Positions 3,414-18,550 of a DNA stretch of 64,000 nt are shown in pieces; within the stretch, counting starts at the first letter, position 1, and each line of letters opens with the position of its first letter. The stretch spans positions 264,109 to 328,108 of the forward strand of contig CAYLMK010000004.1 in the NCBI GenBank assembly GCA_964384945.1, in the 5' to 3' direction. The position numbers and the translations under genes are program-made. The stretch comes from an uncultured Thermodesulfobacteriota bacterium. GTDB lineage: Bacteria > Desulfobacterota > DSWW01. Below the pieces are notes generated by a model. The model saw only the letters and a list, made by a program, of their open reading frames with translations, did no database searches and was not told the DNA's origin.

Positions 3414-4058
3414 TCATGTCGCCAGGAGGGGCAGTCCTGTCAGTTCCTCGAGGCTCCGGATGACCACGGTTGCGCCTCCACGGATGAGCGCCGCCGCCGA
3501 GAACTTCCTGTTTTCCACGCCGATCGCGGCCATGCCCGCGTTCCCGGCCAGGGTCATGTCCTGCGGCATGTCGCCCACGTAGACGCATTCCGCCGGATGG
3601 AGGCCCATCTTTTCCGCCATGAAGAGCAAGGTGTCCGGAGCCGGTTTCGGCTTCCTGGCCTCCTCGCCCGCCACGACCATCTCGAACAGACCGAGAAAGT
3701 CCCCCCCCAGGGCATCCACCTGTTTTCTCGTGACGCCCGTGAACAGACCCAGCCGGTAGCGGTCCTTCAACGAAGCGAGGGTCTCCCGGGCCTTTGGGAA
3801 AAAGAGATCTCTGCCCCGGGTGATTTTCCAGTAGTTCTCGACCTTCTCCGAAGCCAGAGCCCGCGGGTCCGCCTCGATCCCGTTCTCCCGGAGGACCTGT
3901 TCGATGATGTGCGAGGTGGGCTTGCCGAGAAGCAGATCGAGCCTTTCGCGGCGGACCGCCAGGCCGAACCTCTCGAAGACCATCTGAAAGGCCCGGATGT
4001 TGTATTCATAGTCGTCGAGCAGGGTACCGTTCAGGTCGAAGAGGATGCATCGGATCAT
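3414..4058 (-). CDS. HAD-superfamily hydrolase (phosphatase-like); last gene of the long minus-strand operon
   Basis: HAD motif I (ILFDLNGTLLDD) lies at the internal Met. The ORF extends to 4262 but that upstream part is low-complexity. The chosen ATG sits 5 nt after the stop of the preceding gene. C-terminal VYVGDMPQD is HAD motif III. Confidence 0.75.
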   Translation of the reverse strand: MIRCILFDLNGTLLDDYEYNIRAFQMVFERFGLAVRRERLDLLLGKPTSHIIEQVLRENGIEADPRALASEKVENYWKITRGRDLFFPKARETLASLKDRYRLGLFTGVTRKQVDALGGDFLGLFEMVVAGEEARKPKPAPDTLLFMAEKMGLHPAECVYVGDMPQDMTLAGNAGMAAIGVENRKFSAAALIRGGATVVIRSLEELTGLPLLAT

Positions 4059-4065
4059 GGCAGAC

Positions 4066-7000
4066 TCATGGGTTGCGGCCCTCTCGTGTTCCGCGGCCTT
4101 CTTCCGCATCGCCGGGACGGGCGGCGAAGGGCTCGAACAGGACGCGGGCAAGCCCGGGGTCGTCTTCGGCATGGTGGATGGCGGCCTCGACTTCCTCTGC
4201 CCGGGCGGTTCCCCAGTAGCAGTGCGGCGCGGCCAGGGGGGGGCGATCCGCAGGGTCGGCATTGAAAAGCTGGATGCCCTCGTTCCCGAAAATCCGGTTG
4301 TACTCGAAGATCATCGCTCCGTTCAGATAGACGCCTCCGCTGCCGGCAGGCGTGCCCGCCCTGTTGCGGCTCACCGTGTTCCCGCGGAACACCTCGTTCT
4401 TGATGCTCATCCCCCAGAAGTTCAGGAACACTCCGCCTCCGTGGTCGCCGCCGCAGCGGTTGTCCAGAATCCGGTTCTTCTCGAGCGAGCTGTTCGTTTC
4501 GGCGTAGACGCCGCCTCCCTCCGAAGAGCTGTTCCGGACAATTTCATTGTCCTGGATCAGGGCAAAGGTCGCAAACAGGCCGCCTCCCTTTCCCCGGGCC
4601 TCGTTGGCGAGAATGCGGTTGCCGACCATGGCGGACCGGGAGAGCCACACTCCTCCGCCGTCGCCGCCCGACCGGTTGCCCTCGATCCGGTTCCCGGACA
4701 GGTTCACCGCCGTGTTCGACCGGTAGCCGTAACCGAAAACGCCCCCTCCATCCTCGCCGGCCTCGTTCCGGAGGATCTCGTTGTTCAGGATGTAGATGAG
4801 CTGGCTCCCGTACGCGTAGATGCCCCCGCCGTTCGACGGGCTTCGATTCTCGACGATCCGGTTGTGCTCGATCCGCGCGGCCGCATCCCGGATCGAGATG
4901 CCGCTGCCTCGGTTCTTCCGGAGGACGCAGTTCGCAACCCGCGACGTTGCCCCCTCGATGAGCACCCCCATGCCGTGTTCGATGATAGAGTGCTCGAGGA
5001 GAACCGGCGCCGAGCCGGTCTCCGCCTCGCCGGGGGTTTCCGCCTCCCCCTGCGCCTGTCCATCGAAGAACAGGTGGCCCCAGGGCGACTCCGGATCCCC
5101 GGTGAAAAGGACCGGCCTCGCCGGCTCCCCGCGGGCGGCCCAGGCGCCGCGCACGCGGAAGTTCGCACCGCGCGCGATCTCCATCCTCGTGCCAGGAAGA
5201 AGCTCGACCTTCACGCCGCTCGGCACGAACACGTTTCCGGTCACCGTGTAGGTCGCGCCCCCGGACTGCCCGAAAACCGTGTCCTCTCGCAAAGGCCCCT
5301 CGACAATGTTTGGGGCCGCAGGCGGGGTACAGAAGCGCGTGGCCGCAGACCAGTCGGTCCAGTTCCCGTCCGTCCCCTGGAAGGCGACGCGCCAGGCGTA
5401 CTCCCTGCCGGGCCGCAGGACGCCCTCGGGCAGCGCAAGCGAGTCGTTCCCTCCCACAGGACCGCTGTCGAAAAGAGGCGTGGAGAAATCCACGGGGATC
5501 TCGCTGATCACCCAGCGGGCCCCGGCCCGCGATTCCTCCGCCATGTCGGCAACCGCCTGAAGCAGAAGCACGGCCTCCGCTGCAGGGTCGCATCGGTCGG
5601 GCCGGACCGCGCGAATTCCCCGTGGGGCTGTTGCGGCCTGCTCGCTTCCGGAGCCTCCGACCGGAACCGGCAGCGGCCGGGAGAGGGCGCTCTCCACGAT
5701 CTCTCCTTTCGCCTCCTCCCGGTAGGCGGACAGGCAGAACAGGGAGGCCTCGGGGGACGGCCGGGCGAGCCGGACCGAACGTTCTCGGCCGTCCAGGGCC
5801 TGTCCGGTCGCCCGGGGAGGCCCGCCTTCTCCAAACCCGTAGAGACGAAACCCGCTCACCGTCACGTCCGGCGGGTACGTCCAGCGAAGGACCCACTCCT
5901 GACCCTCCGCCTGAACGGTCAGAAAGTCCGGAGGGGGAGGAGGCGCCTCGGGAATCCAGCGTTCCCGCAGTTCGTGCCAGTCGACCAGGCCCCGTTCGGC
6001 GTCGTCGAGCCAGTCGTAGATACGCGAGATCACGACCTCCCGGTCTCGGGTCCCCCAGTAGTTCTCCCCCGCGTCCAGGTCCGGGGCCAGCCTGTGGGTC
6101 TGCACGCGCAGGGCATAGCCCAGGCTGGCCACAATGTTGTTCCGCCTGAGTTCAGGCCCGCCGGAAACCACGATGGCCTCCCCGGGCTCCTCCCCCTTCG
6201 ATCCGTTGCCGTAGAAGGTGTTCTCCTCCACCCGGCCGTCGGCGTAATAGAAGAGCCCCCCTCCCAGGAAAGGAGACGCCGTGTTGTACGCCAGGGAGTT
6301 CCCGCGGATGAGGCTCCCCTCCGAGTAGATCCCGCCCCCGCGGCCTGCCTGGTTCGACTCGATCCGGTTCTTCTCGACCCTGCCGCCCAGGGCGAAGAGC
6401 CCTCCTCCGGAATCCTCCGCCACATTGTCTGCGATCAGGTTCCCTGCCACCTCGCACCGGAACGCAACGAGTCCGCCCCCGTATCGATCACTCCGGTTCC
6501 GCCAGATTCGGTTGTTCAGGATGGACACCCTGCCCTTGTCGTATGCATAGGCATAGATCCCTCCGCCGCCGTCGCGGCCCCCGCTGGAGATATTGTGATG
6601 GACGTCGTTGCCCTCGACGACCACCTCCCGGTCCGAGTAGACGACCATGCCGCCGCCGTTCCCCGAGGTATCCTCGAGCTCGGTCGAGTTGCCGTAGATC
6701 AAGTTCCCCGCAACCCTTCCCCCGGAAAACTCCAGGCTGATCGGCGTATCGACGTTGTCGCGAAAGATCGAGGACTCGATCTGGATTTCCGTGTCCCTCG
6801 CCTTGATCCCGCGCCCTCCCTCGACGATGCAGTGCCGAAAGAGGTCGGGCTGAAGCCTGCCGTCCTCTCCCGCCTTGCCGCCGAGGCAGTCGATCTTGTC
6901 CCAGGGTTCCTTCTGCAAGGGGCGGAAGGCGATCGGACGCTCCCGGCTTCCCCGGGCGACGATGCGCCCCTGGCAGTGAATGCTCACATCCGGTCCCAAT

Positions 7001-7260
7001 CGCACCTCGACGCCCGGCTCGATCGTGAGGGTGGCCTCGGGCACGATCAGGAAAGACTCCGTGATCCGATAGGGGCTCTTGCGCTGCTTCCAGACCGTGT
7101 CCCTGTCCATGGTCTTCACGCCCAGATCCGGGGGATGGAGCAGGAGCGAGATCTTCTCGCAGGATGCGCTGAGGGCGGCCAGCAGGACCGCCGCGGCCAG
7201 GGCCCCCCGCTTCCTCCTCTTGGGGGGCCCTCCCGCCCCAACCCGGCCAGGCTTTCCCAT
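4066..7260 (-). CDS. Giant secreted lipoprotein with two right-handed parallel beta-helix (PbH1/NosD-like) domains plus Ig/FN3-like spacer, 1064 aa
   Basis: RBS GGAGG 10 nt upstream of the ATG at 7260. Signal peptide MGKPGRVGAGGPPKRRKRGALAAAVLLAALSASC contains a lipobox-like SASC. There are dozens of G-rich beta-helix rungs (GGGIYAYA, GGGLFA, NRIxxN) and two YWGT motifs (ENYWGT, HCYWGT), as in NosD/disaggregatase-like proteins. Confidence 0.8.
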   Translation of the reverse strand: MGKPGRVGAGGPPKRRKRGALAAAVLLAALSASCEKISLLLHPPDLGVKTMDRDTVWKQRKSPYRITESFLIVPEATLTIEPGVEVRLGPDVSIHCQGRIVARGSRERPIAFRPLQKEPWDKIDCLGGKAGEDGRLQPDLFRHCIVEGGRGIKARDTEIQIESSIFRDNVDTPISLEFSGGRVAGNLIYGNSTELEDTSGNGGGMVVYSDREVVVEGNDVHHNISSGGRDGGGGIYAYAYDKGRVSILNNRIWRNRSDRYGGGLVAFRCEVAGNLIADNVAEDSGGGLFALGGRVEKNRIESNQAGRGGGIYSEGSLIRGNSLAYNTASPFLGGGLFYYADGRVEENTFYGNGSKGEEPGEAIVVSGGPELRRNNIVASLGYALRVQTHRLAPDLDAGENYWGTRDREVVISRIYDWLDDAERGLVDWHELRERWIPEAPPPPPDFLTVQAEGQEWVLRWTYPPDVTVSGFRLYGFGEGGPPRATGQALDGRERSVRLARPSPEASLFCLSAYREEAKGEIVESALSRPLPVPVGGSGSEQAATAPRGIRAVRPDRCDPAAEAVLLLQAVADMAEESRAGARWVISEIPVDFSTPLFDSGPVGGNDSLALPEGVLRPGREYAWRVAFQGTDGNWTDWSAATRFCTPPAAPNIVEGPLREDTVFGQSGGATYTVTGNVFVPSGVKVELLPGTRMEIARGANFRVRGAWAARGEPARPVLFTGDPESPWGHLFFDGQAQGEAETPGEAETGSAPVLLEHSIIEHGMGVLIEGATSRVANCVLRKNRGSGISIRDAAARIEHNRIVENRSPSNGGGIYAYGSQLIYILNNEILRNEAGEDGGGVFGYGYRSNTAVNLSGNRIEGNRSGGDGGGVWLSRSAMVGNRILANEARGKGGGLFATFALIQDNEIVRNSSSEGGGVYAETNSSLEKNRILDNRCGGDHGGGVFLNFWGMSIKNEVFRGNTVSRNRAGTPAGSGGVYLNGAMIFEYNRIFGNEGIQLFNADPADRPPLAAPHCYWGTARAEEVEAAIHHAEDDPGLARVLFEPFAARPGDAEEGRGTREGRNP

Positions 7261-7356: not shown

Positions 7357-9594
7357 CTATTCGTATTCGGTCCAGTCGACCTCCGCCCCCGGCCTGACCT
7401 GCTCGATCGCCCTGTCCTCGGGCATCTCCGGAACCTTGTCCATGAACATCAGGAACAGGGTCGCATACTCGATCCACATCTCCGGATCCGGCATCCGGGC
7501 GGCACCGTCCGGCGTGTAATACACGTAAGGCATCTTCGTGCCCCGACCTGCGTAGCGGTCCGGGTTGCGCAAGAAGTTCTTGATCCAATCGTACCGCAGG
7601 CGGCCCTTGGTGAGCATCAGATTGATGGACAGATCCTCCAGCTTCACGCCCTCGGGAAGGGCGCCGTCAAAAGAGACCGGGTGGCACTGCATGCACTTGT
7701 CGGTCTTCACCCGGTATTCCCCCATCTCCAGGACCTCGGGCTCGTAGTCGTCCCGGACCGGCAGCGAGACGTAGGGGACCCGGACGGTTTCCTGGACCTC
7801 GGGATCCAGGAGCAGACGAAAGCAGGCGATGAGCGTCTCCCGTTCCTGATAGCCCAAGCCGAACTCCGGCATCCGGATCTTCAGCCACGGTCGCAGCTCC
7901 ACGGGCTTGCTCAGGTACTGGAAGAACCACTGGGGCTGCACCCGCTCCGCCTCGGCGATCAACCGGGGAGGGACCATGGATTTGAGTCCCGTGAAGCGGT
8001 CGATGCGGGGCTTGACGTCCTCTTCGAGCTGATGGCACCCGCCGCAGTTGTAATGGCTCAACATCCAGTCGCCCTTCGCAAGGGTCGATTCGTCCGGGCC
8101 AAGCTTCCGGAGATAGGATTCCGAAACGGCGTAGTCCGCGTTGTGAAGATAGTAGACCGTGAGCGACTCGATCTCGCTGTCTTCGAGCCGGTGGTCCGGC
8201 ATCTTCAGCGGCATGTCCTCGCTCGTGTAGATGTCCGGTTTGCGGATCTTGTGATAGAGCCAATCCCACTTGGTGCGGGGCACATCGGACGATCCGAAGG
8301 GAAGCTCGTCCAGCCGCTTCCCGGCCACATCTCCCACCCCCACACCGGGCAGGGGCAGCTTCTCCATGTCCCGGACGACGTGGCATCCGTAACAGCCCAT
8401 GAGCTGGACCAGCCGCTTTCCCTCCCCTGGGTCGCCCCCTTCCGGAAGATCGGCCGGCGCCGGCCCGAGGAGTTCTTCGATCTCCCCGGGTCGCAGGGAC
8501 TCGAGGTAACCGGCCAGGTCCCTTCGTTCCTCTTCGGTAAGCATGAGCCGGGGCATGGCCGTCTGGGGGTTCCACTCGGCCGGCCCTTCAAGCCAGGTGG
8601 CGACCCAGGGGCCGGAGAGCTTCAGGCCCGCTTCGAAGAGGTTCGGAACCCGATCCGTCAGGCAGGCCTCGTTCCGATCGTCGCTGTGGCAGCCCACGCA
8701 CCCCTTCTCCGTGAAGAGGCCCTTTCCGTTCCGCTGAGATGCGCGGTCGCTTCGATAGGCGACCAGCGGCTTGGGCAAGGTCCGCTGTCCCATCAGATAG
8801 GCGACGATGTGGAGAATCTCCTCCTCCTGGAGGCGGAAGGTGGGCATCCGGTTCCTGGGGCGGACGGAGGCGGGGTCCTTGATCCACCGATAGAGCCAGG
8901 CAGGCCGGGAGACCTTCTCGCCGATCCCCTCGAAAGGCGTGGACATCCGGGGAAGATCCCTTGTCATGCGGGCCTCGTGGCAGCCGTAGCATCCGTGCTC
9001 CAGGAACAGGATCCGGCCTTGCTCGGCCTTCTCGGCCCCCCGCAGGCGGTGCGGGCTTTCGTGGCACCCGAGGCAGAGCCCCTGCACGAACCTCGACGGA
9101 ACGCGCGGCAGCGGCCAGTTCTGCTCGTAGCCGTGCGCCTTCTCCGCGGTCAAGCCGACCCCCTGGCCGTGATGGCACAGGGTACAGCCGAAGCGGCCGG
9201 GCTTGTGGTCGGCCAGAATCTCGGGGGGGTGATACCGCAGGGGGTTCGCCGCGTCCCGGAACAGCGGTTCCTCCAGGGCCAGATGGCACGTCCGGCACAG
9301 ATCGCGGACCCCCGCGTCGGGCAGAAAGATCTGCTCGATCCGGGGTCCGGCCCCGTCACGGGCCTTCTCGAGCAGCCGGGACCATTTCTTCAGGGCCTCC
9401 TCGTCCCCCTCCTCGGTCGCGACCCGGAGGTTGCGCTCCACCGCCTCCCTGAACGTTCCCCTGTAGTCTCTCTGGAAGCCCTTCCACGCCTGCCTGCCCT
9501 CGGAACGAAACACCACGAGAGACACGGCGAGGCAGGCTGCCGCCAGCGGGACAAACAACATTCGCGATCTGGTTCCTGCCCGAATCGTTGCCAT
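7357..9594 (-). CDS. Octaheme c-type cytochrome, membrane-anchored (8 CxxCH motifs)
   Basis: Heme-binding motifs: CRTCH, CTLCHH, CLGCH, CYGCH, CVGCH, CYGCH, CGGCH, CMQCH. N-terminal hydrophobic anchor. Located 15 nt downstream of the cytochrome b gene. Confidence 0.85.
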   Translation of the reverse strand: MATIRAGTRSRMLFVPLAAACLAVSLVVFRSEGRQAWKGFQRDYRGTFREAVERNLRVATEEGDEEALKKWSRLLEKARDGAGPRIEQIFLPDAGVRDLCRTCHLALEEPLFRDAANPLRYHPPEILADHKPGRFGCTLCHHGQGVGLTAEKAHGYEQNWPLPRVPSRFVQGLCLGCHESPHRLRGAEKAEQGRILFLEHGCYGCHEARMTRDLPRMSTPFEGIGEKVSRPAWLYRWIKDPASVRPRNRMPTFRLQEEEILHIVAYLMGQRTLPKPLVAYRSDRASQRNGKGLFTEKGCVGCHSDDRNEACLTDRVPNLFEAGLKLSGPWVATWLEGPAEWNPQTAMPRLMLTEEERRDLAGYLESLRPGEIEELLGPAPADLPEGGDPGEGKRLVQLMGCYGCHVVRDMEKLPLPGVGVGDVAGKRLDELPFGSSDVPRTKWDWLYHKIRKPDIYTSEDMPLKMPDHRLEDSEIESLTVYYLHNADYAVSESYLRKLGPDESTLAKGDWMLSHYNCGGCHQLEEDVKPRIDRFTGLKSMVPPRLIAEAERVQPQWFFQYLSKPVELRPWLKIRMPEFGLGYQERETLIACFRLLLDPEVQETVRVPYVSLPVRDDYEPEVLEMGEYRVKTDKCMQCHPVSFDGALPEGVKLEDLSINLMLTKGRLRYDWIKNFLRNPDRYAGRGTKMPYVYYTPDGAARMPDPEMWIEYATLFLMFMDKVPEMPEDRAIEQVRPGAEVDWTEYE

Positions 9595-9609
9595 CGAACG
9601 CGCATGCCC

Positions 9610-10410
9610 CTAAATCGAGAAGTAAGGCGTCGTCAGGATGTACTTCACATGGAAGAAGATCCGCAGGATGATCTTGCCCACCACGCCGAACATCAGGAGC
9701 ACGAAGGTCCACGCGACCACGTGCTTGACGACGCCCATCTTCCGAAAGAGCCGCCGGTTCGCCAAGGCCGGCAGCACGAGACCCAGGGCAAAATAGGCCA
9801 CCAGCAGTGCGAGGCCGAACCCCATCGGGAGACTCGTCAGTTCCTGTTCGGCCGTCTTGGGCACGGCCCAGTCCTCCCAGGGCCAGTAGAACTGCCAATT
9901 CGGGCCGCGAAGAAACTGGCCGATGAAGATCAGAACGAACCACATGAGGTATCCGAACAGGAAGAGGGGCACCACGAGGGGCCGCTCGCGGAGGCCGTAC
10001 TTGCCCACGCCCTTGGGGTTCGGATCGAGGTAGGGAAGAAGCGCGAGCCCGAGGATGATGAGCAGCGGCGCGCCTACGCCGGCGATCCAGGGGTCGAAAT
10101 AGACCAGCAAATCCTGAAGGCCCACGAAGTACCAGGGCGCCTTGGCCGGGTTCTCGGTCCAGTTCGGGTCCGCGACGGCCTTGAGCGGGGCGTCGACCTT
10201 GTACGACCAGACGATCAGGACCAGCGTGGCCGCCAGAACGGCGAGGAGCTCCTTGAAGGCGAGGTCCGGGAAGGCGAAAACCTCCTCACTCCGCCCCGCA
10301 TCTTCGCTTGCGTTCTTCTGTCCCATCCGTTTTTCCGATTCAATCGCCGACAACTGAGCGTCCCCCGGCTGTTGGCTTTTGGCTCTGAGCCCGTACCCCC
10401 TCCCCACCAT
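9610..10410 (-). CDS. Cytochrome b C-terminal half (subunit IV/PetD-like) of a split cytochrome b
   Basis: PWYF motif (APWYFVGLQDLL), equivalent to PEWY of PetD. Three transmembrane helices. The start is ambiguous: TTG at 10452 (12 nt after the upstream stop), ATG at 10410, or ATG at 10326. None has a good SD sequence. The middle ATG is reported. Confidence 0.7.
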   Translation of the reverse strand: MVGRGYGLRAKSQQPGDAQLSAIESEKRMGQKNASEDAGRSEEVFAFPDLAFKELLAVLAATLVLIVWSYKVDAPLKAVADPNWTENPAKAPWYFVGLQDLLVYFDPWIAGVGAPLLIILGLALLPYLDPNPKGVGKYGLRERPLVVPLFLFGYLMWFVLIFIGQFLRGPNWQFYWPWEDWAVPKTAEQELTSLPMGFGLALLVAYFALGLVLPALANRRLFRKMGVVKHVVAWTFVLLMFGVVGKIILRIFFHVKYILTTPYFSI

Positions 10411-10464: not shown

Positions 10465-11220
10465 TCACAACGCCCTCGACATGCCTCCGTCCTTTCGCAC
10501 CCTCCAGAAGTGGACGAACATCAGCAGGCCTGCCACGAACGGAAGGAGCACACAGTGAAGCACGTAGAAGCGAAGAAGGGCGCTGGCCCCCACGTCGGAG
10601 TCTCCCAGCAGAAGGAAACGCATATCGTTGTCCGGGTGGATGCCGAACCACTCGTGGAAAGGGCCGTCCGACCCGAGAAAGGGCGTGGCGGCGGCCATCT
10701 TCGTCCCCACCGTGATGGCCCACAGCGCGATCTGATCCCAGGGGAGAAGATAGCCGGTGAAGCTCAACAAGAGCGTAACCACCAGCAGCATGACGCCCAC
10801 CACCCAGTTGAACTCCCGCGGGGGCTTGTACGAGCCGGTCAGAAAGACCCGCAGCATATGCAGCATGACGAGCAAAACCATCGCATGGCCCGCCCACCGG
10901 TGCATGTTCCTCAAGAACATGCCGAACCGAACCGTGTGCTCGAGAAGCTTCATGTCCAGATAGGCGTACTCGGGCACGGGACGGTAATAGAACATGAGGA
11001 GGATGCCGGTCACTGTCTCCGCGAGGAACATGAAGAAGGTCAGCCCCCCGAGACAAAAGGAGTAGCGCAGCCGGAGGGTCTCCCGGGGAAGGGTGACCGG
11101 ATGAAGGTGCAGAATCGAGTTGGAGACGATCGCAAGGGCCCGGTTCCGCGGCGTGTCCTCGAAGCGGTGCCGGAAGATGGATCGCCAAAGCTGCGACTCT
11201 GTGATTCTTTTCCACGCCAT
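10465..11220 (-). CDS. Cytochrome b/b6 N-terminal half (heme b-binding, quinol-interacting)
   Basis: [32 protein letters not shown] is the hallmark cytochrome b N-terminal segment. Conserved His residues in helices B and D. Internal ATG chosen, 11 nt after the upstream stop. Confidence 0.85.
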
Positions 11221-11231: not shown

Positions 11232-11936
11232 TCAGGCTGTCAGCAGGGTCTGGAGGTAGGCGTACTCCCCGGCGAGGAAGCGGCAGGTGAACTTGACCAG
11301 TTCCCGGTAGAAGAGGATCGCCTCCCGGCACGCATCCTCGGGGAGCCGCTCCACGATCTGCTCCAGCCTCTCCAGGGCCTTGTTCATCCAGAAAAGCGGG
11401 TGCCTCTCCAGGAAGTCCCGCTCGGCACGGCGGTACCCGGCCGGGTCCGAGCCCGTCTGCATGGCCTGGACCTCCTTGAAGGTCAGGTAGTGAAGGAACT
11501 CCATCTCCAGGCAGACGTGATCCGGACGTTCGTCCTGGGCGCCCTCCGCATAGCTCAGCCCGAAGTGGTTGTAAAACAGGATAAGCTCCTTGAGCACGAC
11601 CTTCCGGTCCTCTCTCCAGGCGCCCTCCACCAGCGGGCAAGGCGGGCCGCCCGGCCCGGATTCGAAGAGACGGATGAACTCCACCTCGATCTGCTCATCC
11701 TCGAGCCGGGACGGAAGACGCAGGCCCTTCCGCTCGCCCTCCTCCAGAGAAAACGGATAGGGAAGCCGGGCCAGCAGGATTTCAAGGGCCTCTGCGAGCT
11801 CGCCCTGCCTTGCCTGCCGGCGGAAGGAGGCATCCGGATACCGGTAGGCCTCGGCCAGGATCGCATACAGCCGGCTCCGGTTTCCCGAGCGTTTCTCCGT
11901 GTCGGTCTCGAGCGGTCTGCTCCGGATGTCTTCCAT
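11232..11936 (-). CDS. TorD/NarJ-family redox-enzyme maturation chaperone (delta subunit, EbdD/NarJ-like)
   Basis: [22 protein letters not shown] is the TorD-family core. The ATG at 11936 lies 5 nt after the beta-subunit stop. The remaining upstream part of the ORF is low-complexity. Confidence 0.75.
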
Positions 11937-11941: not shown

Positions 11942-13084
11942 CTACGCCTGGGACGGTTTTGGAGGGAGCCTTTGCAACAGGGCCGGGTCCTTGGTGAAGG
12001 GCTCGAACATCTTGCCCCACTCCCTGGCAATCAGGATGTCCATCAGCTCCGACTTGCCCCCGCCGCGAACCTTCTTCATCTCGCTCTGCATGGTCTCCAG
12101 GGCCCTGTCCACCTCGGGCCCGAAGAGATAACGCAGGTAGGCCGTCGGAATGCGCGGCTTGGTGGTGTCGATCTTCCCGGTCTCGTCGAGCCTCGGCGGA
12201 GCCAGAGGAGGAACGTAAAACACATTCGGTTCGGTTCCGTATTCCGGGTGGAGGGGCAGCGCGACCTTCCAAACCTTCACGAGTTTGTGGATCGGCCCTT
12301 TTTCATCGTCCAGGAAGCCAAGGAACCGTACGCGGCCCGTGCACTGCCTGGCGCAGGCGGTTGCCACCTCCTGCTCGAGACGCGGGTAACAGAAGATGCA
12401 CTTCATGCTCGTCTTCGTGACGAAGTTGAAATAGATCACCTTGTACGGGCAGGCCTCCAGGCAGAACCGGTAGCCCTTGCACCGGTCCTGGTCGATCACG
12501 ACCGCGCCGTCCTCTTCCCGCTTGTAGATCGCGTTGCGCGGACAGGCATCGATGCAGGCCGCGTATGTGCAGTGGTTGCAGATGCGGGGAAGGTAGAAGT
12601 AGAAGGCGTTCGGGTATTTCCCGCCTCCCTGGTCCTCATCCCAGTTCATGGACCAGTCCGGCTCCGTTCCGTCCGGGTTGCGGGCCTGCAGGTGCTTCTC
12701 TCCCGCCTGGGAGGAGAATACCTCCTCATAGTTGAATTTCCAGAGATCCCCGAAGTCCTTCCGCGTGGGCAGCTCCCCGCGCACCGGGTCCCTGACCTTC
12801 CCGCCGAAGAGCACCTGGTACCCGCCGCCCTTGCGCTCCCAGTCCTTGGGAGACCCTTTCCCGGGCTGTGTGTTCACTTTGTTCCACCACATGTATTCCC
12901 GACCCTCAAGCTGGGTCCAGAGGGACTTGCACGCCATCGAGCAGAGCTGGCATCCGATGCATTTGTTCAGGTCCATCACCATGGCAACCTGGCGCTTGCA
13001 CTCGCGCAGCGTCTCCTTGGCGGCCTGAAACTCCAGGGCGAGTTCCTTTTCCCGTTCGGTCAGCTGTTTCTCGTCAACCGGCAT
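11942..13084 (-). CDS. Type II DMSO-reductase-family molybdoenzyme beta subunit (NarH/EbdB-like, 4 Fe-S clusters)
   Basis: RBS AGGAGAAG upstream of the ATG at 13084. Motifs: VMDLNKCIGCQLCSMACK, EYMWWNKV, CNHCTYAACIDACP, CKGYRFCLEACP, CIFCYPRLEQEVATACARQC. Confidence 0.9.
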   Translation of the reverse strand: MPVDEKQLTEREKELALEFQAAKETLRECKRQVAMVMDLNKCIGCQLCSMACKSLWTQLEGREYMWWNKVNTQPGKGSPKDWERKGGGYQVLFGGKVRDPVRGELPTRKDFGDLWKFNYEEVFSSQAGEKHLQARNPDGTEPDWSMNWDEDQGGGKYPNAFYFYLPRICNHCTYAACIDACPRNAIYKREEDGAVVIDQDRCKGYRFCLEACPYKVIYFNFVTKTSMKCIFCYPRLEQEVATACARQCTGRVRFLGFLDDEKGPIHKLVKVWKVALPLHPEYGTEPNVFYVPPLAPPRLDETGKIDTTKPRIPTAYLRYLFGPEVDRALETMQSEMKKVRGGGKSELMDILIAREWGKMFEPFTKDPALLQRLPPKPSQA

Positions 13085-13146: not shown

Positions 13147-13830
13147 TCAAACTTCCACCACGAGCCCCATCCACTCCTTGCTGAACGCCTTGACCCCTCC
13201 CCGTTCTCCGTTGGCGCCCTCCCAGGCGGCAAAACCGACCGTGAGGTCCTTCGCGCCCGGTTGGAGATTCACGGCCTCTTCGGCGACCGTGAGCGGGCGT
13301 CCGATGATCACGCACCACTTGCCCTGCTTCCAGTCCGAACAGGAGACGAGCGACGACTGGTCGGTGTAGAGGGAGGTCGCGAGCCCCCGGGCCACCTGGT
13401 TCTTGGGCTTCTCCTTGAAATCGGGCCTCCAGTACCAGCTGTTCGTGGGGTAGTCGTGGGAGCCCATCTCCTTGATCTGGGTCTTCTCCGGGTCCTTGAA
13501 GGGGAGCAGCACGGCGACGCCGTCCGGGAAGGTGCCGATGTCGCCGATCTCGAGGTTGGGCGCCTGGCTGTTCCATTCGATGTGGAAGAAGATCTCCTTC
13601 CCGTTGTGCACCGCCTTCACCTCGATCTCCTTGACCGCGCCGATCTTGGTCTCGTCAAAGGTTGCCTTGATATACGGCGAGGGCTGGTTGGCCAGGGGTG
13701 TCGCGCCCATCTCGATCCGATGTCCGTTCATGCCGGCCCAAACCGGAGCCTTGCAGTTCAGAAGCTCCTGGTGGGAAGCGGACACCTTCCTGACGATCAC
13801 GCTTTCCAACTTCTTTGCTTCCTCCGGCAT
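13147..13830 (-). CDS. Putative gamma subunit (EbdC/DdhC-like EB_dh heme-b domain protein), 227 aa, no obvious signal peptide
   Basis: Strong RBS AAGGAGG 8 nt upstream of the ATG at 13830 (MPEEAKK). Resembles ethylbenzene dehydrogenase gamma from memory (APVWAG, AVHNGKEIFFHIEW, NSWYWRPD, GANGERGGVKAFS). The ORF-track GTG start at 13914 is not favoured. Confidence 0.65.
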   Translation of the reverse strand: MPEEAKKLESVIVRKVSASHQELLNCKAPVWAGMNGHRIEMGATPLANQPSPYIKATFDETKIGAVKEIEVKAVHNGKEIFFHIEWNSQAPNLEIGDIGTFPDGVAVLLPFKDPEKTQIKEMGSHDYPTNSWYWRPDFKEKPKNQVARGLATSLYTDQSSLVSCSDWKQGKWCVIIGRPLTVAEEAVNLQPGAKDLTVGFAAWEGANGERGGVKAFSKEWMGLVVEV

Positions 13831-13935
13831 TTCCGATGCCTCCTTTCGTGAGTCTATGATCTGTAAGCTGTTAGCCATTAGCTGTTGGCCCACCCCGCAC
13901 CCTGGTGCCGTCACTCTTTCGGAGACCGGAGGCCG

Positions 13936-14026: not shown

Positions 14027-14029
14027 TTG

Positions 14030-16942
14030 CTACGTCTTCTTCACCTCCACGGCAATCGCGCGGTCGACCGGCTGCAGACACCAGTTCCACCGGTAGTAGT
14101 TCAGGTGACCGTATCCGGCTGCCAGATCCAGCCACTTGATCATCCCCGGGATGGCCGTGTCATAGCTCTTCCACTCCTTGAACATGAAGGGCTCCCAGGC
14201 ATGGTAGATGATTACCTGTCCGGGAGAGGTCCCCTTGCCGGGCCGGGCCGCCGGGCTCACCTTCACATGGATCCGGAACTCGTCGAAGTCGTTCCAGACC
14301 CTCACCAGATCCCCGTCCCGGATTCCCCGCTTTTCGGCATCCTCGGGATTCATGAACATGAACGGCCGCCCCTGATGGGTCCGCATGAGCTGCTCGTCCG
14401 TGATCCAGATGGAATGCACGCTCCAGCGCAGATGCCCGCTGGTCAGGGTCAGGGGATAGTTCCCTCCCATCTTCGGGTTGGGCTTGTGCACGGGCATCTG
14501 TTCGCCGGCCTCGAGGTGCCACGGGTGATCCAGGTAGAATTGCAGCCGCCGGTTGTAGGTGGGATAGGGGAGCTTCTTCGAGCCCGTGTGCCAGGTAAGC
14601 GGCACGATCGGCTCGTCGGGCTTGATGTCTGTGGCCAGGTGCATGGTGATCGGATCGAAGATCGACAGCCCGACAAAACGAACGATGCCCTCTTCGCGCA
14701 TCTTTGCCAGATTGGTTCCTTGCGGAAGGTTGCCCATCATCACGCTCGTCTCCAGGGCGTCTTCCATGATCTCTTCCAGGTTGCTGCAGCCCATGGCCTG
14801 CTTCTCTCGCAGGTTCTCGAGATCGACCTTTCGGCCGCTTCGAAGCTGGAACTCGGTCTTGCCCCTCTTCCGGGCCTCCTGTTCGATCTTGCCGGCGAGC
14901 ATCACGCAGATCTCCCACTCGTTCTTGGCCTCGCCGGGAGGCTCGACCGCCTTGTCCGTCAGCGTCAGCCAGGGAACATGGGGCGTGGGAAAGCGGGTGT
15001 CGAGCTTTTCGTAGAAGCCGGCGCAGGGCAACACGTAGTCGGAGTAGAGAACCGTCGTGCTCCAGCGGGTCTCGAAACCGAAGACGAGCTTGTACTTCTT
15101 CCAGAGGCTGGGCAGTATGTTCTTGTTCCAGCCCCGGTTTTTCCGCGCAGGGCTGGTGCCGATGTAGAAATAGACCGTGGGCTCCTGGTCCGCATAGGGC
15201 AGGGCAAAGCCCTCCCACCACTTTTTTTCCAGGGCCTCCTTCATGTACTCCGGGAATTCGCGCTTCATGGTGGGGCAGTGCCATTCCCTCCTGTCCCAGG
15301 CATCCTTGTACCCGGAATGGAAATAGTAGAGGAAGGCCGGCGGAACCATCGTGTATTCCGTACGGTTTCGCTCCCGCTCGAGCAGCACCGAGAGCATCTC
15401 GTCCGTCCGGGTCGGGTCTTCCGCCTTGAACCGGTTCACGATCCGCTTCTCCTGGGCCAGCCGGAGAGTCGCGCCCAGGGGTCCCCTCTTGGACTTGATG
15501 GCCTGGAAGAGGGCCCCCTCGAACAGGGATTCGTTCCAGCCCCGGATCCCGCTTCCCTTCCTTCCGTAACTGCCGGTCAGGGCCAGAAGAAGGCACATGG
15601 CCCGCTCGATCAGATCTCCATGATAGTACTTGCACGCGTTCCATCCCACCAGCACCTGGATGTGAGGCTTGGCCTTGGCGCACTTCTCGGCAAGGCGGCG
15701 GATCGTGTCCGGGTGGGTTGCACAGTGCGGGGAGGCCTTCTCGGGCGTGTAGTGCCGGTCGAGCTGCTCCTTCAGGAGCGCGAAGGACGGCCGCACCTCG
15801 GCCTGCCCGCCGTCAAGCAGCTTCACGATGAAGGTCCCCTCCAGGGCCGGGTCCACGGGCAGCTTGAGCGTGTCCAGCGGGGCCTTTACGGGGCCCCCTT
15901 TGGCCGCATCCCAAAAATAGAACTGGTCGTCCCGTCCGCCCTGCTCCAGATCCGCAACCCGGAGAAACCGGCCCGTGTCCGTTCGGACCAGCAGGGGAAG
16001 ATCGGTCTGCTCTTTGATGAAGGGGATGTCGATCCAGCCTTTCTCGATCAGCACCTGGCAGACGGCGAGCCCGAGGGCCGCGTCCCCGCCCGGCTCCACG
16101 GGCACCCACTCGTCGGCGTGCATCGCGCTCGGCGAGTAGTCCGGCGCGATCGTCACCACCTCGGCGCCGTTGTACCGCGAAGAGGCGATGAAGTGATAGG
16201 AGGGGATCCGGGTGTAGACCGGGTTCATGTGCCAGATGAGCAGCAGCTTTCCAAAGAACCAGCCGTCCACGGAGTCCATGAACTGAAACTTGCCCACGCT
16301 CTGGTAGATCCCGCGGTTGAAGTCCCCGATCGTGGAGTCCAGATCCAGGGAGGTGCCGCCGAGAAAGTTGAGCAGCCGCGAGGCAGGGATCAGATTCAGG
16401 TATCCTCCGTTTCCCGGGCCTGTCTCGTTGATGATCGACTCGGGGCCCTGGGACTCCAGGCCGTCGAGGATCCCGGAGGCGATCTCGGAGAGGCACTCGT
16501 CCCAGCTCAGCCTCTTCCACTTCCCGCTGCCGCGCTCGCCCACCCGCTTCATCGGGTACTTGAGCCGGTCCGGGTTGTACATCATGTGGCTGTAGAAGGC
16601 CCCCTTCTGGCACCCCCGGGGGTTGAAGTCCGGGCCGGTCGGGTCCACCACCGGGTACTTGGCCGCCTGCTCCTCCCGGAAGACCACCCCGTCCTTTGTG
16701 TAGACGCGCCAGAGGCAGTTTCCCGGGTAACAGTCCACCAGGTGCGTCCCGTACGTCACCTTGTCCCAGGTCCATTCCTTCCTGTGCAGGTCTTCCCACC
16801 TGGCGTAGTCCCACTCCTGGACGACCTTCTCCGTGGCGCAAGCATTGCCCCCCAGGAAACCCAAGGATCGCAAGGAGAGCATCAGCGCGGAAGCGCCCGA
16901 AACCTGAAGAAACTGTCTCCGGTCAAGCTTGATCCCCTCCAT
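14030..16942 (-). CDS. Type II DMSO-reductase-family molybdopterin oxidoreductase alpha subunit, Tat-exported (NarG/EbdA/NxrA-like)
   Basis: RBS AGGAGG upstream of the ATG at 16942. Twin-arginine signal MEGIKLDRRQFLQVSGASALM. FS0 motif HLVDCYPGNCLWRVY...PRGCQKG (H-x3-C-x3-C-xn-C). RLKYPMKR as in NarG. Its ATG overlaps the ferredoxin stop (TGATG). Confidence 0.9.
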   Translation of the reverse strand: MEGIKLDRRQFLQVSGASALMLSLRSLGFLGGNACATEKVVQEWDYARWEDLHRKEWTWDKVTYGTHLVDCYPGNCLWRVYTKDGVVFREEQAAKYPVVDPTGPDFNPRGCQKGAFYSHMMYNPDRLKYPMKRVGERGSGKWKRLSWDECLSEIASGILDGLESQGPESIINETGPGNGGYLNLIPASRLLNFLGGTSLDLDSTIGDFNRGIYQSVGKFQFMDSVDGWFFGKLLLIWHMNPVYTRIPSYHFIASSRYNGAEVVTIAPDYSPSAMHADEWVPVEPGGDAALGLAVCQVLIEKGWIDIPFIKEQTDLPLLVRTDTGRFLRVADLEQGGRDDQFYFWDAAKGGPVKAPLDTLKLPVDPALEGTFIVKLLDGGQAEVRPSFALLKEQLDRHYTPEKASPHCATHPDTIRRLAEKCAKAKPHIQVLVGWNACKYYHGDLIERAMCLLLALTGSYGRKGSGIRGWNESLFEGALFQAIKSKRGPLGATLRLAQEKRIVNRFKAEDPTRTDEMLSVLLERERNRTEYTMVPPAFLYYFHSGYKDAWDRREWHCPTMKREFPEYMKEALEKKWWEGFALPYADQEPTVYFYIGTSPARKNRGWNKNILPSLWKKYKLVFGFETRWSTTVLYSDYVLPCAGFYEKLDTRFPTPHVPWLTLTDKAVEPPGEAKNEWEICVMLAGKIEQEARKRGKTEFQLRSGRKVDLENLREKQAMGCSNLEEIMEDALETSVMMGNLPQGTNLAKMREEGIVRFVGLSIFDPITMHLATDIKPDEPIVPLTWHTGSKKLPYPTYNRRLQFYLDHPWHLEAGEQMPVHKPNPKMGGNYPLTLTSGHLRWSVHSIWITDEQLMRTHQGRPFMFMNPEDAEKRGIRDGDLVRVWNDFDEFRIHVKVSPAARPGKGTSPGQVIIYHAWEPFMFKEWKSYDTAIPGMIKWLDLAAGYGHLNYYRWNWCLQPVDRAIAVEVKKT

Positions 16943-17226
16943 CAAGGCCCTCCTTTCCCGGTGGTTGCGGCCCGAATCGGCCCCTCGGCCCTCACCAGGC
17001 GAATGGCGTCCCAGGGGCACCCGAAGATGCGGGATCCCCTGGGGCCCCGCGCCACACAAGCGCCGCAGCCCGTGCAGAGGGCCGGATCCGCCTCCACCCT
17101 CTTGAATGGAAAATGATCCGCGTCCTCGATCAGCCGAAGGGCTCCTTGGGGGCAGTAGATCCGGCAGACGGGCCTGCCCCCGCAGCCCGTGCATCCCTCC
17201 GAGACGAAAGCTACCCGCGTCTGCAT
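16942..17226 (-). CDS. 2x[4Fe-4S] ferredoxin
   Basis: CTGCGGRPVCRIYCP and CTGCGACV...GCPWDAI are two CxxCxxC...CP cluster motifs. Its stop overlaps the alpha-subunit start. Confidence 0.8.
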   Translation of the reverse strand: MQTRVAFVSEGCTGCGGRPVCRIYCPQGALRLIEDADHFPFKRVEADPALCTGCGACVARGPRGSRIFGCPWDAIRLVRAEGPIRAATTGKGGP

Positions 17227-17249
17227 CCCAGGCCCCTGTCCTGCGCCGC

Positions 17250-17840
17250 CTACGTCAGCTCGATGTAGGCCTTCTTCTGTTCGAATTCGCGGGCCGTCAG
17301 CACGACCCGTGTGTCCACCAGGATTCTCTCTTCACTGTCCAGGCTGATCTTCAGGCGGTCCAGCGGACGGGGCGCCGGGCCCGCGAACTCCGTTCCGTCG
17401 GAATGAAACTCGCTGCCGTGGCAGGGACACTTGAAGATTCGCATTCCGGGAAACCAGTTGACCGTGCAGCCGAGATGGGTGCATCGGGCGAACAGCGCAT
17501 AAATCCTTCGGGCCTCGCGCACGACGAAGAAGCGGTGCGCCTGTTTGAAGCGGCTGTCGATGGAGATCACCCCATGGGCATCGGCAGGCTCGGTGGAGAG
17601 GAAATCCTCGATCCGGCCGATCTCGAAGACGCTGGGAGGATGGAAGACCACGGAAGGGAAGAAGAACCGGACGGTCTGGTAGGTCCCGGCGCCGATTCCG
17701 ACGGCAAGGGCGCCCCATCCCGCGACCGAAATCCCCTTCTGAAGAAATTCCCTGCGGGAGGACGCCCCGGCCTTTCCCGTCGGTTCGGGTGCGGGTTCCG
17801 TAACCATCTCGGGCTGGAGGAAAGAGGACCCTTTGCTCAT
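17250..17840 (-). CDS. Rieske [2Fe-2S] iron-sulfur protein, Tat-exported
   Basis: RBS AGGAG upstream of the ATG at 17840. Tat motif SRREFLQKG. Rieske boxes CTHLGC and CPCHGS. Its ATG overlaps the MerR stop (ATGA). Confidence 0.85.
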   Translation of the reverse strand: MSKGSSFLQPEMVTEPAPEPTGKAGASSRREFLQKGISVAGWGALAVGIGAGTYQTVRFFFPSVVFHPPSVFEIGRIEDFLSTEPADAHGVISIDSRFKQAHRFFVVREARRIYALFARCTHLGCTVNWFPGMRIFKCPCHGSEFHSDGTEFAGPAPRPLDRLKISLDSEERILVDTRVVLTAREFEQKKAYIELT

Positions 17841-18550
17841 CCCAGCTCCTGGGTGATCCTGCGCACCATCCGCCGGTGGAGGATCGGCAGGATCTTGTTC
17901 AGGGCATGGATCGCATCCTGGGCGAGCCTCTGGATCTGGGCCGGGCTCATCCCCTTGCGCACGATTCGTTTCGTGAAGATCTCGATCTCTTTGCGTGCCA
18001 GGAATTCCATGAGATCGAGGTGGATCTGGAGATGCTCCACCTGGAAATCGAGTTCTTCGTTCAGGCCGATCTCCTTGATCTCGCTCAGGATCTCCACAAT
18101 CTGCACACACTCGGGGTCGAACCGGCCTTCCGCGTCCGTCTCGATCATGCCCATCGACTCCAGGGCCTGGATCTGCTTCGGTTCCACCCCTGTGCGTTCG
18201 CAAAGCTCCTCCCGGCTCATCGGCTGGGCGTCGTCCCCCAGAAGCGAGTCCTCGAAAAGGGGCCTGTCCATCTCCCGGAGAAGCTGCCGCTGCTCCCCGT
18301 TGAGGGCCGGCCCCTGGGCCCCCACGATCATCTTGATGACGCTCAGAGGAAGGAAGCGCTTCTTCTGGAGGTCCTTGATCGCCCGGATGCGCTCGATGTA
18401 GCTCTCATCGTAGTAGGCCATGTTCCTGTGGGTCTTCAAGGGCTTGGGGAGGATCCCTTTCTGTACGTAGTAGCGGATCGTACCCCCGCTGACCCCGGTG
18501 GCGTGGGACAGTTGCTGCATCTTGAGCAGCCTTTTGTTCTTGGCGGGCAT
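17837..18550 (-). CDS. MerR-family transcriptional regulator (first gene of the operon)
   Basis: N-terminal HTH LSHATGVSGGTIRYYVQKGILP. The start may be M1 (18550) or M11 (18520). Its stop overlaps the Rieske start. Confidence 0.8.
   Translation of the reverse strand: MPAKNKRLLKMQQLSHATGVSGGTIRYYVQKGILPKPLKTHRNMAYYDESYIERIRAIKDLQKKRFLPLSVIKMIVGAQGPALNGEQRQLLREMDRPLFEDSLLGDDAQPMSREELCERTGVEPKQIQALESMGMIETDAEGRFDPECVQIVEILSEIKEIGLNEELDFQVEHLQIHLDLMEFLARKEIEIFTKRIVRKGMSPAQIQRLAQDAIHALNKILPILHRRMVRRITQELG

Follow-up and report, generated by a model that had tools for sequence, protein, structure and literature searches.

This locus raises the question of why the genes of a periplasmic molybdoenzyme of the type II DMSO reductase family lie among those of a Rieske/cytochrome b complex, and what such a pairing would do for its host. 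The window, as the whole 64-kb stretch of DNA analysed here is called (63% GC, nearest public relative 89-96% identical), carries the cluster as twelve genes on the minus strand, whose identities, order and coordinates were confirmed as given in an earlier note on this DNA (Table 1), and cofactor-binding motifs are present in every subunit. The ATGA overlap between the MerR and Rieske genes and the TGATG overlap between the ferredoxin and alpha genes were both found in the sequence. The gap range of 0-96 nt given in the same note, however, is exceeded at two junctions once gene starts are chosen by homologues and Shine-Dalgarno sites, with 199 nt between alpha and gamma and 138 nt between cytochrome b and subunit IV.

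Table 1. The twelve genes of the cluster, with positions in the window and the basis of each assignment
Product	Length (aa)	Position	Strand	Features	Basis
MerR-family regulator	237	17837..18550	-		NCBIfam MerR-type matches
Rieske [2Fe-2S] protein	196	17250..17840	-	Tat motif SRREFL, membrane anchor	Pfam PF00355, NCBIfam b6f/bc1 Rieske families
2x[4Fe-4S] ferredoxin	94	16942..17226	-	no signal peptide, 1 nt overlap with alpha start	Fer4_7
AhyA-type molybdopterin alpha	970	14030..16942	-	Tat motif RRQFL	TIGR03479, EbdA similarity
Gamma, EB_dh heme b protein	227	13147..13830	-	no signal peptide	PF09459 (1.6e-31), TIGR03477 136 bits
Beta, four-cluster Fe-S protein	380	11942..13084	-		TIGR03478 505.5 bits (cut-off 480.7, exceeded)
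Delta, NarJ/TorD-type assembly chaperone	234	11232..11936	-		PF02613, TIGR03482 143.5 bits (cut-off 152.3)
Cytochrome b6-type subunit	251	10465..11220	-		PF00033 (2.8e-39), ExtP
Subunit IV-like membrane protein	238	9610..10326	-	5 predicted helices	PF00032, ExtQ 47 bits, invariant ENPAKAPWYFVGLQ
Octaheme cytochrome c	745	7357..9594	-	membrane-anchored	8 CxxCH
Secreted beta-helix (NosD/CASH-like) protein	1064	4066..7260	-	probable lipoprotein	PF13229 x4, NosD
HAD-family hydrolase	214	3414..4058	-		PF13419

Among solved structures, the best relative of alpha is EbdA (2ivf_A, 759 bits, full length), compared with 470 bits for PcrA, 191 for NarG and 158 for NxrA, and its scores against the NCBIfam models stay below the cut-offs for TIGR03479 (915 bits, cut-off 985), EbdA (810, cut-off 2000) and NarG (230, cut-off 1084). 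Identity is 40% to EbdA and 72% to OQX63933.1, the sequence used as reference AhyA in two studies (PMC7803848, PMC13170169), and when 72 alpha sequences are joined in a neighbour-joining tree, the window alpha and AhyA fall in one clade with EbdA outside. By these comparisons alpha is an orthologue of the published reference AhyA, and AhyABC is a proposed type of oxygen-free alkane hydroxylase, whose alkane role goes back to proteomics in a meeting abstract as cited by a later paper (PMC3653055). The oxyanion options of the earlier note (nitrate/nitrite, chlorate, selenate) are disfavoured by the same scores, and a nitrate, chlorate or selenate reductase was rejected as an identity for alpha on the scores and on the AhyA orthology.

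The subunit set is that of EbdABCD of Aromatoleum aromaticum (PDB 2ivf), to which alpha and gamma align over their full length, and the likeness extends to Tat export and the signal-less gamma, to the invariant Mo-ligand Asp207 and Lys438 of alpha, the latter equivalent to EbdA Lys450, and to the heme b ligands Met108 and Lys201 kept in gamma (aligned to 2ivf_C). In contrast, EbdA His192, considered catalytically important, is a proline throughout the AhyA clade. The FS0 motif of alpha reads H-x3-C-x4-C (THLVDCYPGNC) and not H-x3-C-x3-C as noted earlier. The ebd operon is not known to contain Rieske or cytochrome b genes, and its host, a denitrifier, can use the high-potential electrons directly.

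Downstream of the cluster, relatives carry genes for an SDR alcohol dehydrogenase, MoeA, a thiolase, an acyl-CoA ligase and acyl-CoA dehydrogenases. Neither the SDR nor the MoeA gene that several relatives carry at that place was found in the 64-kb window, which does hold genes for FadL/TodX (with a weak match to alkane-uptake AupA), a long-chain acyl-CoA ligase and ETF. EbdA as top solved relative, the identity to AhyA, and the SDR and beta-oxidation genes after the cluster in relatives all support the hydrocarbon hydroxylase that had been listed as one option for this locus. The nearby glycyl radical enzyme, which had been taken as a further hint at hydrocarbons, belongs to the PFL2/dehydratase class (TIGR01774, 631 bits) and not to the fumarate-adding enzymes, so that this hint was wrong.

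The genes flanking the catalytic module encode a set of redox proteins with conserved motifs. In the Rieske protein the twin arginine, CTHLGC and CPCHGS are invariant across 11 homologues. All eight cysteines of the ferredoxin are likewise invariant, with the spacings Cx2Cx5Cx3C and Cx2Cx2Cx12C, and its gene always follows that of the Rieske protein, rearranged and alpha-less clusters included, while it is absent from Rieske/b modules without linked beta/gamma. The cytochrome b6-type subunit has cytochromes b6 as best solved relatives (154 bits), reaches 271 bits against the NCBIfam ExtP model (cut-off 290), and conserves the four heme histidines and the cysteine of FCLGG at the heme ci ligand position. 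Assignment of its neighbour as subunit IV has weak support that nevertheless agrees throughout, from matches to PF00032 and ExtQ and from an invariant motif: PF00032 matches the whole family of 38 (3.4e-6 at best, 0.016 for the window protein), and ENPAKAPWYF is invariant in the family. It has APWY in place of PEWY, and the canonical glutamate of the quinol-oxidation site is missing. The octaheme cytochrome c, for which a sequence search for solved relatives returned none, keeps its eight CxxCH motifs in 22 of 22 homologues, together with three conserved distal histidines and a conserved methionine in five class-I-like domains. In almost every complete locus the next gene after that of the cytochrome c encodes the beta-helix protein, which comes in two length classes.

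The same order from Rieske through ferredoxin, alpha, gamma, beta, delta, b6, subunit IV and octaheme c to the beta-helix gene is found in ~30 independent public loci (21 genome loci and 9 more reached from the subunit IV side). Other loci show an order of alpha-gamma-beta-delta-Rieske-ferredoxin-b-IV-c8 (L040, L053, L099) or an alpha-less Rieske-ferredoxin-b-IV-c8-TetR-gamma-beta-delta (L090, L092, L105, L115, L121, L132), and in total the linkage of beta/gamma to Rieske/b is kept over four gene orders and ~40 loci carrying several phyla-level labels. This arrangement is far beyond chance. Because the block order recurs and is joined by three other arrangements, the alpha-less one included, the comparison argues strongly for a functional coupling of the catalytic module to the Rieske/b/multiheme c module, and upholds the tie between the two that the earlier note had proposed. 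That note had also held comparable architectures to be unrecorded in Desulfobacterota. With ~30 recurring loci the architecture is neither unique to the window nor absent from that group, and is in fact normal for AhyA-type genes in Desulfosudaceae/Desulfobacterales, examples being the contig of the literature reference AhyA (L010) and a MAG named Desulfosudis oleivorans (L007). Judged from these gene neighbourhoods, AhyA-type genes as a rule stand in such a Rieske/b6-linked cluster. In the accessible literature no paper was found that discusses this link, and the accessible portions of AhyA descriptions cover ahyA/ahyABC only, with the Rieske/b genes unmentioned. A MerR gene next to the cluster and in the same orientation is confined to the closest relatives (L001, L003-L005, L023, L031, L055, L072, L085/86); in the others it is divergent or absent. 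Of 160 loci, the closest metagenome relative (L082) alone carries the HAD gene. Both had been listed within the operon; on their distribution they are lineage-specific add-ons and no conserved part of the module, with HAD a passenger.

How does the cluster compare with known systems? The AhyA reference system 4484_241 (L010) shares the clade, the alpha-gamma-beta-delta order and the flanking Rieske, ferredoxin, b6, subunit IV, c8 and beta-helix genes, whereas the window represents another lineage with co-oriented MerR and HAD. A periplasm-facing type II enzyme with a Rieske/cytochrome b complex is also found in haloarchaea (narB/narC with pNarGH) and in the model for Methanoperedens (PMC3509893, PMC4683180), the former having been overlooked in the claim that type II enzymes lack this linkage. 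Those systems, however, combine a nitrate reductase with an actinobacterial/Thermus-type cytochrome b and forward flow from quinol to nitrate, while the window combines a hydroxylase-clade enzyme with a split b6-type cytochrome b with heme ci cysteine, for which reverse flow is proposed. Such a split cytochrome b is shared with Geobacter ExtP/ExtQ/ExtS and the 'A1/A2' groups of Baymann et al. 2012, in which Rieske/cytb complexes of D. oleovorans have been placed (PMC3509893). The window differs from the Ext system in scores far under the cut-offs (ExtQ 47/150, ExtS 24/100), in its eight hemes instead of the ExtS type, in the extra ferredoxin and in the beta/gamma linkage.

The reading we favour, and regard as probable with some reserve, is an AhyABC-type hydroxylase of alkanes or alkyl chains with its own Rieske/b6 complex, which would return electrons to menaquinone by a reverse Q cycle. 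Sequence does not reveal which way the electrons flow, and reverse transport would be the most economical interpretation. Several observations count against the favoured reading, namely the proline at His192, the missing PEWY glutamate, the lack of SDR and MoeA in the window, the fact that ExtP/ExtQ, the closest named relatives of the cytochrome b, come from a Geobacter system that is reductive, and the forward operation of haloarchaeal Nar, the sole case with experimental support in which a type II molybdoenzyme is paired with Rieske/b (PMC3509893).

The same wiring might serve another substrate, such as an isoprenoid, a steroid side chain, an alkyl-aromatic or a fatty-acid-derived compound, instead of n-alkanes. 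The alkane specificity of AhyA is unproven (PMC3653055), and the window alpha shares no more than 72-75% identity with D. oleovorans-lineage sequences. Genomes carry several alpha paralogues that stand alone or in tandem (L002, L021-L032, L024), and steroid C25 dehydrogenase likewise occurs as isoenzymes. Since clade and synteny are shared with the reference AhyA, and FadL/TodX and the long-chain acyl-CoA ligase lie close by, we consider such a substrate rather unlikely. An improbable arrangement is that of a forward menaquinol:cytochrome c reductase, whose octaheme hub would take electrons from both quinol and the hydroxylase and pass them to an external acceptor or a syntrophic partner. This would suit a cytochrome b that is almost an ExtP equivalog, ExtP being part of a Geobacter selenite/tellurite reduction cluster, and the multiheme cytochrome and conserved secreted lipoprotein encoded next. 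However, the conserved block contains no porin or outer-membrane cytochrome gene, and sulfate is the sole acceptor of the D. oleovorans lineage on alkanes (PMC3653055), so that electrons must re-enter the cell; furthermore, the beta/gamma linkage holds even in clusters without alpha, as if gamma had an acceptor of its own.

Reductases of nitrate, chlorate/perchlorate or selenate do occur in the type II family, and one fed by a forward Rieske/b complex, as in haloarchaeal pNar, could be imagined. The alpha scores, the AhyA orthology, the SDR and beta-oxidation genes adjoining the cluster in relatives and the sulfate-reducer lineages of the hosts make it very improbable. That the two modules are independent operons that are merely adjacent is hardly credible: gaps of 138-199 nt could house internal promoters, but the linkage persists through four gene orders, the catalytic genes are embedded between Rieske/ferredoxin and b/IV/c8, and no terminator-like site lies inside the intergenic gaps of the cluster, the number of hits not exceeding that in shuffled sequences.

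In the favoured reverse-flow hydroxylase, alpha, beta and gamma would form the Tat-exported periplasmic catalytic part, with delta as cytoplasmic chaperone, and would there hydroxylate a methylene group of an alkane or alkyl chain. Two electrons, released near 0 mV, would exit via FS0-FS4 and the Met/Lys heme b of gamma, at a potential too positive for use by a sulfate reducer. On the thermodynamic side, the ethylbenzene/1-phenylethanol couple lies at about +30 mV, EbdC heme b at about +250 mV and menaquinone at about -75 to -80 mV. For menaquinone, a value of -80 mV has been given (PMC4683180). The octaheme cytochrome, itself part of the membrane complex, would carry the electrons from gamma to the Rieske centre; the complex would further comprise cytochrome b6, the subunit IV-like protein and the small cytoplasmic ferredoxin, possibly assisting on the cytoplasmic side, and its Q cycle would be reversed at the cost of proton motive force. 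A precedent is the petI bc1 complex of Acidithiobacillus ferrooxidans, whose Rieske/b genes share a transcript with the gene for a dedicated c-type cytochrome and which proton motive force drives backwards (PMC2754497), although it is a functional analogue only: a classical bc1 complex with ubiquinone and an Fe(II) donor, unrelated in sequence and operon. Menaquinone thus reduced would pass electrons on to cytoplasmic terminal reductases, and the energy cost would be small, because only two of an alkane's many electrons would travel via Rieske/b6.

All twelve minus-strand genes listed in the earlier note were found in the window, which has a GC content of 63%, and their start codons were picked from Shine-Dalgarno sites and alignments of homologues. 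The overlaps it had claimed are real (ATGA at the MerR/Rieske junction, TGATG at ferredoxin/alpha), and its account of short gaps holds for most junctions (5-96 nt) but not for alpha-gamma (199 nt) or cytochrome b-subunit IV (138 nt).

Positions and strand of the twelve cluster genes in the window
Gene	Position	Strand
MerR	17837-18550	-
Rieske	17250-17840	-
ferredoxin	16942-17226	-
alpha	14030-16942	-
gamma	13147-13830	-
beta	11942-13084	-
delta	11232-11936	-
cytochrome b	10465-11220	-
subunit IV-like	9610-10326	-
octaheme cytochrome c	7357-9594	-
beta-helix protein	4066-7260	-
HAD	3414-4058	-

Inside the intergenic gaps no terminator-like sites were detected, the promoter and terminator scan gave counts no higher than shuffled sequences, and Rfam at gathering thresholds returned zero matches over the whole window. 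The alpha-gamma spacer (13831-14029, minus strand, 199 nt) is G-rich and carries repeated GGGTCAGG-like motifs that are also present in a near relative (L031). Its predicted structure does not exceed that of shuffles (z = -0.35), its conservation is limited to the Shine-Dalgarno site, and the corresponding spacers of relatives measure 38-240 nt.

By their Pfam and NCBIfam matches, alpha, beta, gamma and the chaperone delta are assigned as a full set of the type II DMSO reductase family. Alpha reaches 915 bits against TIGR03479, just short of the NCBIfam cut-off of 985, beta passes that of TIGR03478 (505.5 bits, cut-off 480.7), gamma matches EB_dh (PF09459) at 1.6e-31 and delta scores 143.5 bits against TIGR03482 (cut-off 152.3). 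Alpha bears a Tat motif (RRQFL) and an FS0 site, THLVDCYPGNC with one Cys further downstream, in which the spacing is H-x3-C-x4-C and not the H-x3-C-x3-C read earlier. The Mo ligand Asp207, which aligns with Asp223 of the ethylbenzene dehydrogenase (EBDH) subunit EbdA, is invariant in 70 relatives, and the equivalent of Lys450 is likewise invariant. Gamma aligns with EbdC and keeps the heme ligands Met108 and Lys201.

Among solved structures, EbdA scores highest against alpha (759 bits, full-length), followed by PcrA (470), NarG (191) and NxrA (158). The NCBIfam equivalog cut-offs for EBDH are nevertheless missed by all four proteins (EbdA 810 of 2000 bits, EbdB 457 of 740, EbdC 125 of 400, EbdD 108 of 360). 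Alpha is 72% identical to the reference AhyA, OQX63933.1, which corresponds exactly to an open reading frame of contig L010, 75% to its counterpart in L007, a MAG named Desulfosudis oleivorans, and 40% to EbdA; the nearest public relatives of the window reach 89-96% identity. In a neighbour-joining tree without bootstrap, supplemented by score hierarchies, alpha shares one clade with OQX63933.1 and the L007 alpha, and EbdA falls outside; the EbdA sequence in this tree was rebuilt from the structure-search alignment, and CmdA, S25dA, SerA, ClrA, DdhA, pNar and the Hxd3 sequence itself are not part of it. The position of EbdA His192, an active-site residue in the 2ivf numbering, is occupied by Pro176 in the window alpha (about 16415-16417). 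Pro also stands there in most other relatives and in 22/22 members of the clade linked to Rieske/b, so the active site is unlike that of ethylbenzene dehydrogenase.

Because of these identities, the tree position, the invariant Mo-ligand Asp and Lys450 equivalent and the replacement of His192 by Pro, the window enzyme is classified as a member of the AhyA group, and neither as EBDH proper nor as an oxyanion reductase. The latter had been one of the options of the earlier note; identity with NarG, pNar or NxrA was considered and, with 230 of 1084 bits against TIGR01580 and the low NarG and NxrA scores relative to EbdA, the oxyanion-reductase reading was rejected. [quoted passage not shown]

Among the proteins encoded around this enzyme is a Rieske protein whose twin arginine and boxes CTHLGC and CPCHGS are all invariant, the boxes having the form CxHxGC and CxCHGS by which split b6-type complexes are recognised. 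Aligned to solved b6 chains, the b6-type cytochrome b retains all four heme His as well as the Cys of FCLGG, which occupies the heme ci-binding position of b6. The subunit IV-like protein is a weaker assignment than the other module genes: PF00032 matches in 38/38 relatives, though near or below threshold, the match to ExtQ is weak, and structure-based searches gave no confirmation. It does contain an invariant motif, ENPAKAPWYF, and aligned by eye the quinol-oxidation-site motif PEWY is absent, its place being taken by an invariant APWY without the Glu. The cut-offs for the cytochromes of the Geobacter selenite/tellurite reduction operon are missed (NCBIfam: ExtP 271 of 290 bits, ExtQ 47 of 150, ExtS 24 of 100). 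The ferredoxin is a small 2x[4Fe-4S] protein with eight invariant Cys and no signal peptide. In the octaheme cytochrome c all eight CxxCH heme sites recur in 22/22 homologues; three conserved distal His agree with a bis-His ligation for the three hemes nearest the N-terminus, conserved Met residues serve five class-I-like domains, and no solved relative was found by sequence. The beta-helix lipoprotein is likewise conserved.

A genome scan yielded 77 loci, against which the twelve window proteins were compared by tblastn. The block Rieske-ferredoxin-alpha-gamma-beta-delta-b-IV-octaheme cytochrome occurs in identical order in 21 genome loci, L007 and L010 included, mostly labelled Thermodesulfobacteriota, Desulfobacterales or Desulfosudaceae, and the beta-helix gene usually comes next where the contig reaches far enough. 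In two further loci, one from a Myxococcales MAG and the other from a 'Deltaproteobacteria' chromosome, the order is alpha-gamma-beta-delta-Rieske-ferredoxin-b-IV-octaheme cytochrome. Alphas of Dehalococcoidia/Chloroflexota (41-54% identical) are accompanied by gamma, beta and delta only. MerR is adjacent in close relatives only, and HAD in a single other locus (L082).

A reciprocal search started from subunit IV returned three groups of loci. The first comprises more full clusters, several of which continue with MoeA, an SDR alcohol dehydrogenase, thiolase, acyl-CoA ligase and acyl-CoA dehydrogenases. The second lacks alpha and reads Rieske-ferredoxin-b-IV-octaheme cytochrome-TetR-gamma-beta-delta or has these blocks in reverse order; it includes the metagenome loci L090, L092, L094, L097, L105, L115, L121 and L132, in which no molybdopterin alpha was found within 10-20 kb of locus sequence, L094 being ordered MoaA-TetR-gamma-beta-delta-Rieske-ferredoxin-b6-IV-octaheme cytochrome. 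The third is a plain Rieske-b-IV-cytochrome c set that has neither the ferredoxin nor Ahy genes. Ferredoxin is present only where beta and gamma are linked, and in every case it comes after Rieske. Since the linkage outlasts four gene orders and even the loss of alpha from the locus, there is strong comparative evidence that the electron-exit subunits beta and gamma work with the Rieske/b6 complex, and a reading as independent operons was rejected.

In L002, L021, L022, L024-L030 and L032, paralogues with 64-83% identity to the alpha of the window stand alone, with gamma, beta, delta and Rieske/b genes absent nearby. Several are found per MAG, five in binchicken_co17_451 and three in a 'Poribacteria' MAG, and L024 has two in tandem. 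The nearest relatives of the window (L001/L002; L031/L041/L059) each have a second alpha, 83% identical.

Several loci show individual features. In three Desulfobacterales relatives (L079 15701-20711, L080 15770-20696, L081 9555-14481) the genes after the beta-helix gene code for MoeA, an SDR (adh_short) dehydrogenase, thiolase, AMP-ligase and acyl-CoA dehydrogenases. Upstream, an FmdE-like zinc-finger gene and a MerR gene are divergently oriented, and a 72-aa ORF comes just before Rieske. At the corresponding places the window lacks all of these extra genes. L132 has a helicase gene after delta, and ahead of Rieske come FeoB and a radical SAM gene. A Hydrogenedentota chromosome (L078, CP070779.1, 9567-13610) carries a cytochrome b shortened to 137 aa, subunit IV and the octaheme cytochrome without Rieske, ferredoxin or Ahy genes, and resembles a degenerate relic of the module. 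In L062 (191-6117), Rieske-b-IV-cytochrome c genes without ferredoxin, 31-39% identical to the window proteins, lie immediately upstream of an alpha with 51% identity, which may represent an independent second joining of both modules.

The cofactor motifs, topology signals and conserved linkage are seen directly; what the enzyme catalyses and which way its electrons run is inferred. Methylene hydroxylation has a midpoint near 0 mV (ethylbenzene/1-phenylethanol about +30 mV), an EbdC-type Met/Lys heme b lies near +250 mV, menaquinone at about -75 to -80 mV and the acceptors of sulfate reduction lower still, so a sulfate reducer must lift two electrons. Electrons would pass from the gamma heme b to the octaheme cytochrome and on to the Rieske centre, where a reversed Q cycle at Rieske/b6 would reduce menaquinone (-80 mV; PMC4683180) at the expense of the proton motive force. 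Uphill operation has a precedent in the petI bc1 complex of Acidithiobacillus ferrooxidans (PMC2754497). As for the cytoplasmic ferredoxin, it may act as a partner of the complex on the n side or as a NapF-like maturation factor; the former is favoured because it sits between Rieske and b in the alpha-less clusters.

Reduced ferredoxin might itself pay for the uphill step, instead of or alongside the proton motive force. Its low-potential electrons would reach the Qo site by way of heme ci and the b hemes. There they would be joined by high-potential electrons of the hydroxylase arriving through the octaheme cytochrome and Rieske, and menaquinone would be reduced. The alpha-less clusters suggest a common electron-transfer chassis for alphas located elsewhere. 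As a joint reading, that Rieske/b6 is a ferredoxin-coupled electron-confurcating device and, as a corollary, that beta, gamma and the complex form a shared chassis for interchangeable alphas encoded elsewhere, this appears rather unlikely.

The surroundings also encode FadL/TodX, a long-chain acyl-CoA ligase, ETF and an Fe-S/CCG oxidoreductase, in keeping with the catabolism of fatty acids or alkyl chains. The glycyl radical enzyme (24869-27394, plus strand), previously taken as a hydrocarbon hint, belongs to the PFL2/glycerol-dehydratase class (TIGR01774, 631 bits; nearest named families sulfopropanediol and hydroxyproline dehydratases) and not to the fumarate-adding enzymes; this match rules out benzyl- or alkylsuccinate synthase, and the gene therefore gives no hint of hydrocarbon activation by fumarate addition. 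A succinate dehydrogenase/fumarate reductase operon (20709-24140, minus strand) lies between the FadL/TodX-side genes and the cluster, at a distance of about 2 kb from MerR with an opposite-strand GH1 gene intervening. A B12-binding/URO-D fusion methyltransferase (50839-52749, minus strand) and a formate-tetrahydrofolate ligase (54122-55900, minus strand) fit an anaerobe with C1/Wood-Ljungdahl-type metabolism. Two long plus-strand ORFs with coding-like GC3 (437-2233, 598 aa; 57820-59175, 451 aa) gave no match, the former in Pfam and NCBIfam, the latter in Pfam.

EBDH has the subunit plan in common with the window cluster but not the wiring. A type II enzyme is combined with Rieske/b, as here, in the Methanoperedens model (PMC4683180) and in the Rieske/cytb-Nar cluster of haloarchaea (PMC3509893); unlike in the present proposal, that enzyme acts as a reductase and electrons flow forward. 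In 2012, Baymann et al. placed the D. oleovorans Rieske/cytb complexes among the 'additional' groups of split-b, heme-ci type without mentioning the hydroxylase (PMC3509893). A literature search for ahyA/ahyABC or EBDH-like enzymes together with Rieske, cytochrome b or bc found no paper linking them, an earlier mention in Heider et al. (2016) or ten Brink et al. (2013) still being possible, and the conserved coupling to the Rieske/ferredoxin/b6/octaheme complex appears undiscussed in the accessible literature. Of the interpretation in the earlier note, the hydrocarbon hydroxylase and the dedicated bc-type module are retained, while its uniqueness and supposed absence from Desulfobacterota are contradicted by the many colinear loci.

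Hydroxylating hydrocarbons without oxygen yields electrons at about 0 mV, and leaving through a heme near +250 mV these are handy for denitrifiers and useless to sulfate reducers, and alkane activation by bacteria of the D. oleovorans type has been disputed for more than 20 years. A Rieske/b6 complex hard-wired to the electron-exit subunits in dozens of genomes offers a concrete, testable answer to this real bioenergetic problem, namely reverse or confurcating flow into menaquinone. Metagenomic surveys based on 'ahyA' only could add the linked Rieske, ferredoxin, b6 and octaheme cytochrome genes as a filter, which would part genuine members of the system from distant type II homologues without them, such as those of Chloroflexota. 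If the proposal is true, the complex would rank among the rare b6-type complexes dedicated to uphill transport.
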